DNA of 43,042 bases, taken from IMG/VR virus record IMGVR_UViG_3300029590_000018. One strand, given 5' to 3'. Of this stretch, positions 14,605-21,159 are shown in pieces. The notes under the pieces were generated by a model. That model worked only from the letters and a program-made list of their open reading frames with translations. It made no database searches and was not told the DNA's origin. Positions within the stretch are counted from its first letter, which is position 1. Each line of letters opens with the position of its first letter. Position numbers and translations under genes: made by a program. Source of the stretch: a virus.

Positions 14605-14656
14605 TTTTACTCTCCTTTTATTTATTTCCACAGCGTCATTCCCCGCTGCGTATTAC

Positions 14657-14702
14657 AAAAAAAGAGCCGAACAATGCGCAAAATCTGCGTACTGTTCGGC
14701 TC
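14657..14702 (-). terminator. Rho-independent terminator
   Basis: Minus strand: GAGCCGAACA(N19)TGTTCGGCTC, a 10-bp stem, followed by TTTTTTT. Lies between the small ORF and the scaffold gene. Confidence 0.75.
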
Positions 14703-14722
14703 CTATTGCCCTTTCCCGCGCC

Positions 14723-14860
14723 CTATTGCGCGGAAGTGCTGTATTTGATTGTTTTCTTGACCTCTAAGACGATGTACCCGTCACCTTTGCGCCGGATTTC
14801 TACATCGTTTCCACGTTTGAGAATGGCTTGCACGGCCTTGATTGCTTCGTCAAAGTTCAA
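14723..14860 (-). CDS. Small hypothetical protein (about 45 aa), candidate immunity partner of the MuF toxin domain
   Basis: The C-terminal part of the 97-aa ORF looks protein-like (NFDEAIKAVQAILKRGNDVEIRRKGDGYIVLEVKK). TTG at 14860 follows AAAGGCGGA. The upstream part of the ORF covers a terminator-like hairpin and looks non-coding. Confidence 0.35.
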   Translation of the reverse strand: MNFDEAIKAVQAILKRGNDVEIRRKGDGYIVLEVKKTIKYSTSAQ

Positions 14861-14884
14861 GTCATATCCGCCTTTCAAAACACA

Positions 14885-14918
14885 AGAAGGAGAACCACAT
14901 CGCTGCGGCTCTCCTTCT
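14885..14918 (-). terminator. Hairpin / weak intrinsic terminator after the MuF gene
   Basis: AGAAGGAGA(N16)TCTCCTTCT, a 9-bp stem, followed on the minus strand by TGTGTTTTG. Confidence 0.45.
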
Positions 14919-15051
14919 TCGTTGGCGCTTTGGCAGGCGTGGCGTTCCCCTGCATCTCTCGGGTTTCCCCTATCAATACCATCGGCGTGTGGCTGCCACG
15001 AAATTGACCACCTCAAAGCACCTTGCTTATCCTATAACAAGTATAGCCGCT

Positions 15052-16706: not shown

Positions 16707-18131
16707 TCATTCCACTTCGTTCTGCTGCTCCGTGGTCATATCCTGCATCTTCGGCAACGCCGCCTTTGCGGTCTCCTCGTCCTCGTTCATCCACTTCATG
16801 CGAAACTCCCAATCGTTCATGATGCCCGCCTGCAAGAGCTGCATATCACGGGAAAAATCGGTCTGCTTGTCCTCAATGATGCTGTCATCAAAATCGATAG
16901 AAATCTCCACGTCCTCATTTAGCCCAGCGTTCATGGCTGTGTTGCCGAGCCGAAGCAGGATGCGGCACAGCTCCACCAGCGCTTGCTCGAGGATAATTTC
17001 ATGCTTCTTGATCGTGCGGAACATGGTGGAGTTCTCGCTAATGACCTGCGTTGCTGTCGCGACGCTGCCACCGTCGAAACGGTAATAGGTCTCGCCGAAA
17101 CCGCACTTACTGGACAGTACGTTAAGTTGGTCTTGCAGTCCTACATTCAGCTGCTCGGTTCTTAGCGTCGGGGAAATTGTCTCTACGACGTTTCCTTGCT
17201 GCGTATCCTCTGGAAGCATATAGAAACGCCGGTCGTTGTCGTCAAGCGTCGGTTCGTCGTCTTCCCACCTTGTGGCGGGCATTTTGACCATCATCATCAT
17301 AGGCCCGTTCTCAAACTCGTTCACATAGCAGTCATAGGCACAGTCAACGCCGCGCAGAACGTCGATTGCATTTGCATACACAGGGATACCAACCGGAAGC
17401 AGGTGGTCAAGATTGTTTGCGATGTTCGGTCTGTCGATGACGAACTGCCTCTTGTCGCTTCCCGTATGTACCACAGGTGGGATTCGCTCAAAGCCCGGAA
17501 CATCGGTGAGTAGCGCGTCGGCAAGCGTCTCGTTTTCGTATCTGTAAATACTATTCTCGATGACGTAAAGACCGTTTTCGTCTTTCCGGTGAATCTGCAA
17601 ATACAGATAATTCTTTCCGGCTCGTGTGACTACGCTGTCAAACGCGCATTCTGTGATAAATCCATTCTGCCAAGCCAGCGGAAAGATGTGCTCAATCGTC
17701 ACATAGTCCAGCTCGATGCCAGAAACATCACCCGGCACGATCTCGCCGCTTTCATTAACGGCCTGCCCCACCACACGCGGAATGTACGCCACGGTTCCGA
17801 GCGCTGATTTCATTTCCTGCATTTCGTTTGCCTTGACCGTGAAGTTGTTCGCCGTCAGAACCCTGTCAATAAACTCCTGCTCCTTCTGGCCTTCAAGCGT
17901 GATCTGAACCTTCTCATTCATCAAGAGGTTTGCCCAGTCCTCACAAACCTTTTTCGCCATACCGAGGCTTGCACGGTTGCACTTTGTCCACTTATGCCCG
18001 TTATATCGCCGGTATTGATGGAAGCCCTTGACTTTGCCGACGTACCACGACTTCCAAAGGGACACGTATGTATAGAATTCCTCTGGGATCGTCGTATACC
18101 CGAATTCCTTTAATTTATCGATAACCGTCAT
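16707..18131 (-). CDS. Portal protein (SPP1 Gp6-like)
   Basis: 474 aa between terL and MuF. The size and acidic C-terminus are typical of portal proteins. Confidence 0.85.
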   Translation of the reverse strand: MTVIDKLKEFGYTTIPEEFYTYVSLWKSWYVGKVKGFHQYRRYNGHKWTKCNRASLGMAKKVCEDWANLLMNEKVQITLEGQKEQEFIDRVLTANNFTVKANEMQEMKSALGTVAYIPRVVGQAVNESGEIVPGDVSGIELDYVTIEHIFPLAWQNGFITECAFDSVVTRAGKNYLYLQIHRKDENGLYVIENSIYRYENETLADALLTDVPGFERIPPVVHTGSDKRQFVIDRPNIANNLDHLLPVGIPVYANAIDVLRGVDCAYDCYVNEFENGPMMMMVKMPATRWEDDEPTLDDNDRRFYMLPEDTQQGNVVETISPTLRTEQLNVGLQDQLNVLSSKCGFGETYYRFDGGSVATATQVISENSTMFRTIKKHEIILEQALVELCRILLRLGNTAMNAGLNEDVEISIDFDDSIIEDKQTDFSRDMQLLQAGIMNDWEFRMKWMNEDEETAKAALPKMQDMTTEQQNEVE

Positions 18132-19366
18132 GCAATAACTCCCATTCTGCGGCTGACAGGCTCTAACGCATATCTCGTCGCGTCAATCAGGTGGTTGTTC
18201 GCGTCAGGGTAGCCGCTAATAATGTCGCCGTCTTTGTTTCGTTCGTATTCGTATCCAACAAATTCATCGTAAGCGTGCGGTGTGCGTCGCCTGTCAATGA
18301 CGATTGTTCTTCTCTGCAAAAACTTCATGCCGTATTCCACCGAACCGGGGCCTTTTACCGCTTCATACGCAGGTAGCCCCATTGCCCGAAGGTCAGCAAC
18401 GCTCTTCGGTTCTGCGCTGTCGCAGATTGTTCGCACGTTGTTATATCCACGCTGCTTTATCATAACCGCGCTCTGCTCGTTGGACAGCTTGTTTTGATAA
18501 ATCTCGTCCAGTAGATAGATCGTCTCTCTCGCTCGATCATAATGCAGCCGAATAAAAGCGAACGGGTCGGGGAACCAGCCAAAGTCCACTCCCTGATAGA
18601 TGCGGTCAAAACTTTTGACTTCTTCATCTGTGATCTCCCGCAGCACAAGCTTGTCAAACACATTGCCGCCCGTGCCGACCGGGATACCGAGATATTCGTG
18701 CTGATACGCGCGCTCGTCTGTCTCTTTGAGGTGTTCCGCTTCTGCAAGAAACTGTTCTCCCAGCCACTCGGGCGGTGCTTGCAGATACGTGGACTTATGA
18801 CACAGCCGGTCAGCGCGTTCTTCCAAACTGTCCTTGTTTGCCCAGTTGTCACGCGAAATAGGCGGGTTGTAGCTTTCAAAGTTCCAGAACACCGAGCCAC
18901 CGCGCATGGTCGACTGCAAAATGTTTCGGATTTCCGCACGTCCGGCAAACTGGTCTTTCTCCTCAAAGTGCGTCACGGCAATATAGCCAAACGGCACCTT
19001 AATAGACTTGATCTTCATGGGGTCGTCAGCGCCGCGAAACATGATCTTTTGGCCTGTCGGCTTGTAGATCAGCTCCATTGGGGATACTTTCGCGTCCCAA
19101 TACGCCGCCATGCCCAACTCGCCGATTGCCCAGATATACTGTGCATAAACGCTATCGCGGATTGTATTTGCCACCTTGCGCAACACAAGCGCATGCGTTC
19201 CCGGATTGCCAACCAGCAAAAGCGGTACAAGAATTGATACTGTGGAGGATTTCAGTGAGCCACGACCGCCGCTAAAATCGTAGTGCGTGTGGCCGTGGTG
19301 GAACACGTCATGTGCCACGTCGTAGAATGCAGAGCCGATTTTTTCAGACAGGCGAATGTCAGACAT
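18128..19366 (-). CDS. terL: Terminase large subunit (PBSX family)
   Basis: Walker A-like GGRGSLKSS, with nuclease-domain acidic motifs. ATG at 19366 with RBS AAGGTGG. Overlaps the terS stop. Confidence 0.9.
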   Translation of the reverse strand: MSDIRLSEKIGSAFYDVAHDVFHHGHTHYDFSGGRGSLKSSTVSILVPLLLVGNPGTHALVLRKVANTIRDSVYAQYIWAIGELGMAAYWDAKVSPMELIYKPTGQKIMFRGADDPMKIKSIKVPFGYIAVTHFEEKDQFAGRAEIRNILQSTMRGGSVFWNFESYNPPISRDNWANKDSLEERADRLCHKSTYLQAPPEWLGEQFLAEAEHLKETDERAYQHEYLGIPVGTGGNVFDKLVLREITDEEVKSFDRIYQGVDFGWFPDPFAFIRLHYDRARETIYLLDEIYQNKLSNEQSAVMIKQRGYNNVRTICDSAEPKSVADLRAMGLPAYEAVKGPGSVEYGMKFLQRRTIVIDRRRTPHAYDEFVGYEYERNKDGDIISGYPDANNHLIDATRYALEPVSRRMGVIA

Positions 19367-19772
19367 CAATAACCACCTTGACGGAATCCGTTCTTATTTT
19401 TGTCTCGTTCACTTCCCGCCAACCAAAATTGCAGCCAAGCGAGAATTTTGCGCCGTTCGCACCGTCTTTGTCGTAGAGCCGAGATTCGGCATATTCTTCA
19501 CATCTGGACTTTGCGCGCGTAACCGTGTCCGCAAACTCCGGCCTTGCTTGATAATCCAGCAGCGCTTGTCTCCCTGTGAATCCAAGCGCCAATGCAAGCC
19601 CCGTGATTGTCGGCGGCTTTGCGTTGATGATGATCGGCACTCCGTACTTATCGCGCACGGCACAGCCGTCATCTCCGATAAACGGTTCACCTTCGCACTC
19701 TTTGAAGTAAGCGTCAATGGCCTCCTGCATTGCCTTTACGCTTTTCCATTTTCTTGGCGCTCCACCCGCCAT
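19359..19772 (-). CDS. terS: Terminase small subunit
   Basis: 137 aa directly upstream of terL. The PTITGLALALGF HTH segment is typical of Terminase_2-type small subunits. RBS AAGGGAG. Confidence 0.8.
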   Translation of the reverse strand: MAGGAPRKWKSVKAMQEAIDAYFKECEGEPFIGDDGCAVRDKYGVPIIINAKPPTITGLALALGFTGRQALLDYQARPEFADTVTRAKSRCEEYAESRLYDKDGANGAKFSLGCNFGWREVNETKIRTDSVKVVIDV

Positions 19773-19866
19773 ACGCTCACTCCCTTTCGTTTTGCTACCG
19801 GCCCCCGCCCCTTGGCCTTACATAGCAGACTTACCCGCCCAATTGGGCACTCCTACTATTTTTTTG

Positions 19867-19956
19867 AACGGACGGCTGGAGTCGAACCAGCGACCAAGGG
19901 TATTCAATCGCATATCCCTTCACGCGATAAAGCTCTGCCGACTGAGCTACGCCCGC
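19867..19956 (-). tRNA. Aberrant tRNA-like element (canonical acceptor, D and T arms; 40-nt non-canonical anticodon/variable region)
   Basis: Minus strand: GCGGGCG-TA-GCTCAGTCGGCAGAGC ... GCTGG-TTCGACT-CCAGC-CGTCCGT. There are 40 nt between the D and T stems instead of about 23, and I could not fold a 5-bp/7-nt anticodon arm. Confidence 0.55.
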
Positions 19957-20426
19957 ATTTGCTCGGCTTGCCGCTTAGATTGTCACGCCTCATGCGCGCT
20001 TGAAGCCCCGCAAGCATTTCAAGCGGCCACACATTGGCTATCGCAAGGGGGACGCATCCCCACGGCAGTTTTCAGCGGCCATTGTCATTTGCATGTGAGC
20101 CATGCCGGACGGTCTCACATTGTCCGGGCGCTACCCGGCCTCTAATACCACACCGCGCTGCGCCTTTTCATCAGCCACGCACTGTTTTTGCGGATTAACT
20201 GTCCGCCGCTATCCGGATAGCTTGTGCGTACTTAACTTCTCGCGCTTCCTCGCCCGCTTGTGTGGTTGGTGCGGCATTGCAGTCCTGCCCTGCTTTAGCG
20301 CTTCAGGGAAAGCCCCTGTCACTCGCTGTGGTCTCCTCACACTACGGGGTACCTATGCCGCATATATGTCCGGTTTCCACGGTTACCCCACTTGTTTATA
20401 CTCCGTTGGTGACTCCGTTTAGAGTT
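19957..20426 (-). ncRNA. Candidate large structured non-coding RNA between the two tRNA-type elements
   Basis: 470 nt with no minus-strand ORF of 60 aa or more. Many GC-rich local helices paired by eye, for example 19998-20004/20018-20024, 20048-52/20057-61, 20094-99/20114-19, 20124-28/20134-38, 20190-94/20202-06, 20304-08/20314-18 and 20346-51/20384-89. Confidence 0.45.
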
Positions 20427-20501
20427 TGGCGCAGGCGGCTGGAATCGAACCAGCACATACGGGAGTCAAAGTCCCGTGCCTTACCTTTTGGCTACACCCG
20501 C
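20427..20501 (-). tRNA. tRNA-Gln: tRNA-Gln (anticodon UUG), CCA encoded
   Basis: 75 nt: GCGGGTG-TA-GCC-AAAAGGTAA-GGC-A-CGGGA-CTTTGAC-TCCCG-TATGT-GCTGG-TTCGATT-CCAGC-CGCCTGC-G-CCA. Cloverleaf folded by hand, with a D-arm like bacterial tRNA-Gln. Confidence 0.9.
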
Positions 20502-20503
20502 AT

Positions 20504-20540
20504 AAAAACAGACACCCGCGAGATATCCCGTGAGTGTCTG
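20504..20540 (-). terminator. Hairpin plus U-tract (terminator or structural element) immediately 5' of tRNA-Gln
   Basis: Minus strand: CAGACAC(N18)GTGTCTG followed by TTTTT, ending 3 nt before the tRNA. Confidence 0.45.
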
Positions 20541-20678
20541 CATGCCGGTAACGCCCTTGCGAGGCCGCTTGCGCGGAGGCACCCATTACCGGCTGTGCCT
20601 TAACCTATGGAGGGAAGAAAGAGGAGAAAAATGAAATTTCGGGTTGTGGGCTGACTGGTTCCACTCTCCGATGATACT

Positions 20679-20687
20679 ATTTTAGCA
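20679..20687 (-). promoter_or_regulatory. Possible extended -10 promoter (TGCTAAAAT) for the non-coding/tRNA block
   Basis: The minus strand reads TGCTAAAAT. No good -35 element. Lies just downstream of the late-activator gene stop. Confidence 0.25.
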
Positions 20688-20715
20688 CGTTTTTATGTGC
20701 CTAATGGGCCAACTT

Positions 20716-21159
20716 TTAGGAAACCAGGCCCAAATAATCTGCTACGTGCCACAAAAATGCAGCTTTGCGGCGCTTCATGGTTCTCTCGCTGAATCCGCAT
20801 CCGTCCATGATTCTAAGCGGGTATCTGTCCCGGTTCTCGCAATTCCGCATGATCACCCACACCAGCTTGCGCCGCACGTTCTCATTGGCAATATCCCGGC
20901 CCACGTTGTCCATGGCGTATTCCACGGCCCGCATTTTCTTTGTCTCCGGCCAGTTCTCTATGGTTGCCAGCCGTTCCGCCTTGCGCTCGGCTATCCTGCT
21001 GTTACCGGGGCTATGCGGCATACCAGACATGGCAAATGATGATGCTTCCAGCACTTCTTCTCGGGCCGCATTGTACGCGCGGACCCGGCGGGGATAGCCC
21101 CTGACGTAGGCGATACACTCCATGCGGATATCGTAGGGGAGCGAGTATTTGTTGCTCAT
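20716..21159 (-). CDS. Putative late-gene transcriptional activator (RinA/ArpU-like)
   Basis: 147-aa basic protein in the position typical of late activators, as the last gene before the packaging module. RBS GGAGGTG. Family assignment not verified. Confidence 0.45.
   Translation of the reverse strand: MSNKYSLPYDIRMECIAYVRGYPRRVRAYNAAREEVLEASSFAMSGMPHSPGNSRIAERKAERLATIENWPETKKMRAVEYAMDNVGRDIANENVRRKLVWVIMRNCENRDRYPLRIMDGCGFSERTMKRRKAAFLWHVADYLGLVS

Follow-up and report, generated by a model that had tools for sequence, protein, structure and literature searches.

We have analysed a 943-base non-coding block (positions 19773-20715) that lies directly in front of the packaging genes in a 43,042-nucleotide (nt) stretch of viral DNA, IMG/VR record IMGVR_UViG_3300029590_000018; that stretch, at its full length, is called the window here. 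The block separates the stop codon of a gene for a 147-amino-acid (aa) protein, a putative late transcriptional activator, from the ATG of terS (19772), the genes here being on the minus strand. We think it likely, though well short of certain, that the late packaging transcription unit begins with this block as its non-coding 5′ portion, and that the block consists of independent pieces that are cut from the transcript as small RNAs. Bounded and separately inherited modules, strand-specific selection at the level of RNA, and a constant place and orientation before terS are demonstrated by the comparisons described below; the events on the transcript that we propose are argued from the features of the sequence.

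Read along the minus strand, the block runs from a promoter-like element and a leader (together segment A, 20715-20502) through tRNA-Gln, a spacer S1, and modules B, B2, C, C2 and D to an element E, which is followed by terS:

20671-20687, minus strand: promoter-like element, an extended -10 TGcTAAAAT (20687-20679) and then a -10-like hexamer TATCAT (20676-20671)
20502-20670, minus strand: structured leader of about 170 nt, conserved in 54 variants (minimum-free-energy, or MFE, fold z = -2.19)
20427-20501, minus strand: tRNA-Gln(UUG), canonical, with encoded CCA (ARAGORN; Rfam tRNA model, 65.8 bits against a cut-off of 29)
20362-20426, minus strand: spacer S1, 65 nt, in front of module B (eight variants; structure unsupported, z = +1.1)
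20267-20361, minus strand: module B, a tRNA-shaped RNA of 95 nt with a four-way junction, identified by covariation and a covariance model (CM)
20143-20266, minus strand: module B2, rod-like, about 124 nt long (MFE z = -2.68; seven covarying pairs)
20065-20143, minus strand: module C, 79 nt, with hairpins H1 (20138-20124) and H2 (20119-20094) and an invariant tail ending CGCUGAAAACUGC
19957-20064, minus strand: module C2, 108 nt, with hairpins GGGGA-UGCG-UCCCC (20061-20048) and GCUUGAA...UUCAAGC (20024-19998)
19866-19956, minus strand: module D, a non-canonical tRNA-like gene of 91 nt (Rfam RF00005, 39.2 bits against a cut-off of 29)
19790-19848, minus strand: element E, a hairpin GCCC-NNNN-GGGC (19848-19837) and about 45 nearly invariant nt

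The division into modules comes from relatives of the window. We fetched 153 IMG/VR loci (L numbers below) with terS and the activator gene as anchors and compared the region by blastn. Modules are present or absent independently of each other across related loci. Where both anchors are visible there are 21 architectures, with a gap of 384-1796 nt between the anchors, and five or six separately bounded modules of about 80-125 nt are found alone, in other combinations and in other orders. The usual order in relatives is tRNA, C, (C2), B, (B2), E; that of the window differs, B and B2 preceding C and C2. Many relatives with the same terS have a gap of only 384-600 nt and are without B, B2, C, C2 and D. 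The closest relatives align with the block colinearly over its full length, at 90-99% identity. Since the modules occur alone, recombined and reordered, there is no conserved large architecture beyond close relatives. At the position of the block, ARAGORN finds in relatives a variable array of tRNAs on the same strand (Gln, Trp, Thr, Cys, Ile, Asn, Gly, Ser), the units of which often abut with zero spacer, as where tRNA-Gln runs directly into tRNA-Trp. Many relatives (L014, L032, L034, L038, L053, L054, L058 and L060) have a further 750-940 nt between E and terS, probably an extra gene; the window is without this insert.

A second IMG/VR contig, UViG_3300045988_011203 (43,508 nt), encodes terS and activator proteins 100% identical to those of the window and carries them at its two ends, which fall inside the block. 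The alignment of its terS locus (L002) starts at position 20282 of the window, and its other end holds module B (L221) and the activator gene (L082), so that L002, L221 and L082 are all one contig. Judged from this arrangement of sequence, the window and the contig are probably the same genome, circularly permuted.

Module B folds as a four-way junction. P1 is a 7-base-pair (bp) acceptor-like stem (GCGGCAU/AUGCCGC) with a 3′ end of A73 plus CCA; P2 is a hairpin, GNRA-capped in most relatives; P3 contains a conserved internal loop (AGUGA/AAG) and closes on a loop of 3-5 nt; and P4 has 4 bp and a 7-nt loop, GGCAGGA. We tested this structure on an alignment of 34 diverse copies (A1) against 500 shuffles and slid controls. 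In it 95.9% of cells are paired (31-43% in the slid controls) and 20 of the 28 pairs change on both sides, including all 7 pairs of P1, values that none of the 500 shuffles reached; the MFE structure of the window copy gives the same four-way fold. The boundaries are sharp, with flanking sequence unrelated between loci. The module ends in N-CCA in 82 of 100 distinct variants, 73 of them ACCA, and the base before G1 is a pyrimidine (U or C) in 96 of the 100. Searched with our covariance model for B (R1), the window has a single copy, which scores 104 bits.

To place these RNAs among known families we ran cmscan on the whole window against the 4227 families of Rfam 15 at gathering score, and on positions 19400-21100 at E ≤ 10. 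At gathering score the window yields two tRNAs and, elsewhere, a skipping-rope RNA; the matches to SAM-II, permuted-tmRNA and plastid-ycf2 at E ≤ 10 (E 0.9-6) were dismissed as chance. B (20267-20361) has no match in Rfam, and over it the tRNA model gives no hit at E ≤ 10. It has no T-loop or D-loop consensus and no 7-nt anticodon loop, and by eye we found no convincing fit of a K-turn or sarcin-ricin motif to its internal loop. Module B is tRNA-shaped, in topology and in termini, and is not a tRNA. It is new relative to Rfam, and may be among the 10,006 viral candidate RNAs, as yet without names, that Fremin and Bhatt list (PMC10690425).

A pattern made from the most conserved stretch of B finds it in at least 120 IMG/VR contigs, and it is also present in six metagenome-assembled genomes (Oscillospiraceae, Lachnospiraceae and Clostridia). 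Genome-wide, 87 of 93 pattern matches were chance hits in unrelated GC-rich genomes; the CM accepts only 6, and these six copies were in its training set. Wherever anchors are visible, B lies between a homologue of the activator (50-100% identity) and terS or TerL, on the same strand. In the few lineages that have the spacer S1, it is always accompanied by B and follows tRNA-Gln, tRNA-Trp or a D-type unit.

The 7-bp closing stem of B2 (ACCACAC/GUGUGGU) starts at the base right after the CCA of B. Its distal end is a three-way junction with hairpins GCUAUCCGGAUAGC and GCGGA-CAGUUAA-UCCGC, and its seven covarying pairs change on both sides, for example from CCACAC/GUGUGG to CCCGGC/GCCGGG in L264 and in a swap of the palindromic hairpin. 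The 3′ end reads A-UUA here and N-CCA in several relatives. Module C always starts at, or overlaps, the last A of the CCA end of the preceding unit, whatever that unit is; in relatives the unit whose 3′ end marks the start of C may be tRNA-Thr, tRNA-Gln, tRNA-Trp, D, B or B2. Four of its pairs change on both sides in independent lineages (L080/L184, the L015 group and L262). We considered and rejected C as a tRNA-like unit closed by an AGAGGCC/GGCC... stem: the positions vary uncompensated, and C8-C9 pair within H1. Module C2, which occurs with C in only some loci, has one compensatory change per hairpin (G:C to A:U and A:U to G:C) among 15 variants, and its MFE is not above chance. Element E is represented by more than 100 distinct variants in which the tetraloop varies (AAUU, UUCG, CUCG and others), and it always stands just upstream of the first late open reading frame (ORF), 18 nt before terS or before the 750-940-nt insert.

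These changes also identify the strand under selection. In the helices of B, B2 and C, G.U pairs outnumber A.C pairs by 53 to 12, 73 to 5 and 35 to 1, respectively; so large an excess indicates that the selected molecule is RNA of the late-gene strand.

Both tRNA genes named in the original prediction are borne out, tRNA-Gln(UUG) at 20427-20501 by ARAGORN and Rfam, and an aberrant tRNA-like element given as 19867-19956, our module D, by its Rfam match at 19866-19956 and its abnormal anticodon arm. Codon usage gives no informative argument for tRNA-Gln without host data: in a rough collection of ORFs, CAA accounts for some 27-31% of the Gln codons. The acceptor (with two G.U pairs), D and T (GGUUCGACUCC) arms of module D are normal and align to the tRNA model. 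The region of the anticodon arm has 34 nt where 17 are expected and forms a hairpin, AAGGG(A)UAU / AUACCCUU. The anticodon stem drawn there by ARAGORN is mismatched, with G.U and A.G pairs, and the comparative data favour a different hairpin, of 8-9 bp with an 8-nt loop, over a 5-bp arm with a 7-nt loop. This central hairpin shows one compensatory change (G:C to U:A, in L021/L263), and the bases of a possible pseudoknot, AUCGC/GCGAU, are invariant in 12 of 12 variants. Lacking a canonical anticodon arm, D should not be filed as a decoding tRNA. Its 3′ end is U-CAA here, compared with U-CCA in relatives, and G5.U68 here stands against G5:C68 in relatives; the altered ends of B2 (A-UUA, 20143-20146) and D (U-CAA, 19866-19868) may reflect relaxed constraint in this lineage.

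Relatives contain many tRNA-like genes in which canonical acceptor, D and T arms are combined with aberrant anticodon arms. Examples are L076 3438-3515, L077 3542-3619, L034 2407-2490, L032 2680-2759, L078 2101-2184 and L028 2295-2379. Among such arms are a CCGG/CCGG stem with a 10-nt loop (ACUUCGUGAG) and an 8-nt loop read by ARAGORN as 'tcga'. The anticodon names that ARAGORN gives to these genes are unreliable.

Ahead of the array stands the leader, which comprises a 5′ hairpin, a CU-rich tract (UUUCUCCUCUUUCUUCCCUCC), a stem CCGGUAA/UUACCGG that encloses GNRA-capped hairpins, and a terminal hairpin. The terminal hairpin (20541-20508) has a stem of 10 + 4 bp followed by UUUUUAU, the five U residues occupying 20508-20504, 2 nt before tRNA-Gln. 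With a GC-rich hairpin and an immediate U-run it has the form of an intrinsic terminator, and termination is predicted; our terminator scan, which counts only hairpins with loops of 3-8 nt, missed it. In clades whose activator is 55-59% identical to that of the window, the leader keeps the same order of elements in different sequences, and there an unrelated 13-bp hairpin with a U-rich tail lies directly before the first tRNA-like gene. The same divergent clades have TGcTACAAT or TGgTAAAAT at the place of the extended -10. From TAAAAT onward the leader is nearly identical across the 54 variants. The approximately 30 nt between the activator stop codon and TAAAAT (20688-20715) exist in three versions that track the activator clade; this variable stretch could be a regulator binding site that travels with its gene. 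The pyrimidine tract of the leader (20603-20630, minus strand) is rich in CUCC and UCCC, which are complementary to a Shine-Dalgarno-like GGAGG, and a similar tract is present in the divergent leader clades. C-rich seed regions occur in small RNAs (sRNAs) of Firmicutes.

This layout would be that of a late promoter with a terminated leader, both promoter and termination activity being predicted. The late leader of lambda is built from the Q gene, the PR′ promoter, the 6S RNA and the tR′ terminator. The likeness lies in the succession of a regulator gene, a promoter, a leader of about 170-190 nt with an intrinsic terminator, and the late genes including terminase, and extends to a second -10-like hexamer just downstream of the promoter -10. 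In contrast, no similarity to Q can be detected in the regulator here, and its assignment to an 'activator' PHROG is only weak; nor is an array of tRNAs or sRNAs known to follow lambda tR′.

We propose the following course of events. Transcription would start at the extended -10 just after the activator gene; the first 170 nt or so of the transcript would fold into the leader, and the hairpin with its U-run would partly stop polymerase before tRNA-Gln. The hairpin would limit late transcription until the upstream protein acts, whether by activation or by Q-like antitermination. Transcripts that read through would carry tRNA-Gln, B, B2, C, C2 and D, then E and terS, and host tRNA-processing enzymes would cut this precursor at the tRNA-like ends into discrete small stable RNAs. 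By cutting at the 5′ end of a unit, RNase P would at once release the 3′ end of the preceding one. The termini are consistent with such a scheme: in tRNA-Gln and B a 7-bp stem is followed by N-CCA, which is true of B2 and D as well in relatives, and the units abut, B2 starting right after the CCA of B in the window and C right after the CCA of B2 in relatives. RNase P matures several non-tRNA RNAs that have an acceptor-like stem and CCA, among them 4.5S RNA, tmRNA and the C4 RNA of P1 and P7.

Of the products, tRNA-Gln would serve as a tRNA in translation. B, B2 and D cannot decode, since they have no canonical anticodon loop, and for this reason we propose that they are tRNA mimics that would occupy or divert a tRNA-binding factor in the conflict between phage and host, for example a tRNA-cleaving defence nuclease. 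A decoy or competitor role seems the most plausible one by analogy with phage tRNAs that counter tRNA-cleaving immunity. For phage tRNAs with altered anticodon loops, escape from host anticodon nucleases, PARIS and retron effectors, or their neutralisation, has been suggested or demonstrated (PMC10264068, PMC11464382, PMC11555353). B, B2 and D differ from these in having no anticodon loop at all, and so cannot replace a cleaved tRNA in translation.

Several points weigh against this account. The transcription start, read-through at the hairpin and the processing sites are inferred from sequence alone. The candidate promoter has no recognisable -35, and our scan for -35/-10 pairs did not list the TGcTAAAAT site; E could instead be the real late promoter, the array then being a separate unit. 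The covariation of B2, C, C2 and D comes from few lineages, and the folding energy of most modules is no better than that of shuffles (most z values between -1.3 and +1.1). Two of the four CCA ends are mutated here (B2 UUA, D CAA) and 18% of B variants are without CCA, which means that an encoded CCA is not strictly required. Modules C and C2, which have no tRNA-like ends, may be trailers or cis elements and not separate RNAs. The link of the modules to any defence system or binding partner is drawn by analogy only.

In a different explanation, the block is purely a cis-acting leader that controls the late operon, through attenuation or antitermination at the hairpin, mRNA stabilisation or terS translation, and the true tRNA is the only separate functional RNA. 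We regard this as unlikely, while recognising what speaks for it: a conserved promoter, leader and terminator right after the activator gene, as in the Q-PR′-6S-tR′ region of lambda; an E that is invariant immediately upstream of the first late ORF; a CU-rich tract that could pair with Shine-Dalgarno-like sequences; and the want of tRNA-like ends in C and C2. A cis-acting leader would not, however, be expected to dispense with B, B2, C, C2 and D, as many relatives with the same terS do, or to vary the order of its modules from locus to locus; it has no need of the acceptor-like stems and N-CCA ends of B and B2, and it does not account for drum, an sRNA-type gene in Rfam, sharing the same arrays. 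Much less probable still is the idea that the block has no RNA function and is made up of DNA-level elements (protein-binding or pac sites), scars of tRNA recombination, or decaying sequence. The perfect palindromes GCTATCCGGATAGC and GCCCAATTGGGC, the position next to terS, the extreme sequence conservation of E and the point mutations that destroyed the CCA of B2 and D here would all fit such elements. What they would not produce are compensatory changes by which imperfect hairpins stay paired, the marked preponderance of G.U over A.C, which shows a strand-specific RNA constraint, or the 20 covarying pairs of B across phages of different bacterial families.

The original prediction had read the block as a giant RNA, and in our judgement there is very little chance that a single large ornate RNA, either ROOL or GOLLD or a new class, takes up the stretch of about 470 nt between the tRNA genes or all 943 nt. 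The context was correctly described, the block being phage DNA within which tRNA-Gln and a tRNA-like gene lie: ROOL and GOLLD occur in prophages and phages, often beside tRNAs with which they may be co-transcribed (PMC5737381, PMC12286853), and the block is likewise long, non-coding, tRNA-adjacent and in late-gene orientation (PMC5737381), as well as colinear in its closest relatives. It also has many real helices. All ten that were paired by eye are true complementarities, and eight of the ten coincide with helices compensated in relatives; the pairing 20346-51/20384-89, the sole one proposed across a module boundary, is not conserved, and 20577-82/20595-600 would be a candidate pseudoknot within the leader. 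No supported helix reaches beyond its own module, and every module has a closing stem of its own. Comparison of homologues shows selection for RNA structure within modules, and the block called dense in helices does have covarying ones; the folding energy of its 470-nt spacer is not above chance (minus strand, z = -0.27; plus strand, z = -1.04). No covariance model for ROOL, GOLLD, HEARO, OLE or raiA matched on either strand, at gathering score in the window or at E ≤ 10 in 19400-21100, which tells against the named families; a new giant class is opposed by modules that stand singly and reordered in relatives with no conserved helix between them. Each ROOL or GOLLD is one RNA, some 580-800 nt long, whose multi-junction, pseudoknotted architecture is conserved, whereas here modules of 80-125 nt assort independently, and the longest tRNA-free stretch, 470 nt, splits into four modules and a short spacer. 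To a hidden or degraded protein gene, such as a remnant of an HNH endonuclease, or to small ORFs, we attach practically no probability. Relatives do have the insert, probably a gene, between E and terS, and the block contains several short ORFs, the longest on the minus strand within 19773-20715 having 55, 43, 42 and 39 aa. No ORF of the block on either strand, including three of 106-142 aa on the plus strand, has a match in Pfam or PHROGs, where the sole hit covers 17 residues at E = 0.017; moreover, the ORFs overlap tRNA genes, and substitutions in the block are paired compensatory changes, not codon-wise ones. The earlier statements that no minus-strand ORF reaches 60 aa and that the plus-strand ORFs are junk agree with these searches.

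The flanking genes of the block are as follows:

20716-21159, minus strand: putative late transcriptional activator gene, 147 aa, upstream of the block and given for context only
19359-19772, minus strand: terS (PF16677 GP3_package, 2.5e-20; phrog_606), the first late ORF of the window
18128-19369, minus strand: TerL (PF04466)

The terS gene has a ribosome-binding site, AAAGGGAG, 8 nt upstream of its ATG. The original prediction placed the block between a late activator and terS, in the orientation of the late genes and just before the packaging operon. The array is indeed on the terS/TerL strand and the terS assignment holds; the activator label is weak, since the 147-aa protein has only a phrog_248 'transcriptional activator' match at E = 1e-5 and no match in Pfam or NCBIfam. 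The gap is real as well, although not the only one of its kind in the genome, a second non-coding gap of about 420 nt being present at 14632-15051. Among cultured phages the closest named ones share at most about 55% TerL identity, the best being Blautia phage Montmirail, and a single GenBank record, the unannotated faecal contig MT836871, spans the block.

That second gap holds the skipping-rope RNA (RF02924, 48 bits; 14925-15021, minus strand), which is followed by a hairpin and U-run. It lies directly downstream of a gene for a MuF/minor capsid protein 2 (PF06152; 15052-16695, minus strand), the low-GC 3′ end of which encodes a C-terminal PBECR2 RNase domain (PF18810, 1.3e-14). PBECR2-type domains have been predicted by Aravind's group to be injected RNases (PMC5512222), and there may be a functional reason for skipping-rope to stand beside a gene for an RNase of this predicted kind.

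Rfam scans of 17 related loci bring a second known RNA, drum, into the homologous activator-to-terS arrays:

L078 2436-2541; L210 1618-1723, minus strand; L080 1813-1918: drum RNA (RF02958, 77-82 bits)

In L078 and L210, drum ends at the base before the 2-nt leader of module B; in the window cmscan finds no match to drum. Drum and skipping-rope are highly conserved RNAs of unknown and possibly sophisticated function that are linked with particular nearby proteins (Weinberg et al. 2017, PMC5737381). Like them, the modules described here are orphan small structured RNAs of Firmicutes and gut phages, and drum shares these very arrays; the published motifs of drum and skipping-rope, by contrast, end in terminators, while the units in the arrays abut. 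B, B2 and C match neither of them nor any other Rfam model.

In T4, RNAC and RNAD are encoded within the cluster of tRNA genes, and they mature along with the tRNAs. They are late RNAs 'of yet unknown functions' (PMC9697503). There, as here, tRNA genes and non-tRNA small RNAs stand side by side in one phage transcription unit, a comparison that we make by arrangement and not by sequence or structural homology. The array described here differs in lying in the leader of a terS/terL operon in a temperate-type gut siphovirus, in being hypervariable between close relatives, and in that several of its members lack an anticodon loop while having the body of a tRNA or ends like those of one.

The nearest known situation is a cluster of phage tRNA genes to which small stable RNAs are added, such as that of RNAC and RNAD (PMC9697503). 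Different here are the position in the leader of the late operon, the cassette-like shuffling, the replaced anticodon arms and a module, B, without an Rfam match. We speculate, tentatively and with more doubt than conviction, that the space between activator and terS in these phages of gut Clostridia is a hypervariable 'RNA cassette island' of counter-defence RNAs. Its RNase P-delimited units would be true tRNAs, tRNAs with replaced anticodon arms, drum, and new classes like B; these might be swapped between phages at the junctions of CCA and +1, and might act, for example, by distracting tRNA-cleaving immunity as decoys for tRNAs, or together with phage RNases as their partners. If this is true, drum and a new class of tRNA mimics would gain a biological context and a testable function.

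RNAs that travel with phage tRNA genes are poorly known; for the tRNA genes themselves, recent work has made a connection with escape from tRNA-cleaving immunity. What we describe is a conserved slot before the packaging genes in which related gut phages exchange small structured RNAs. If the units are processed and are tRNA mimics, they would constitute a natural, RNA-only toolkit for counter-defence or regulation, and would open a route to the function of at least one long-standing orphan RNA class. Gaps of this kind should be annotated as arrays of small RNAs, and neither as one giant RNA nor as blank intergenic sequence.

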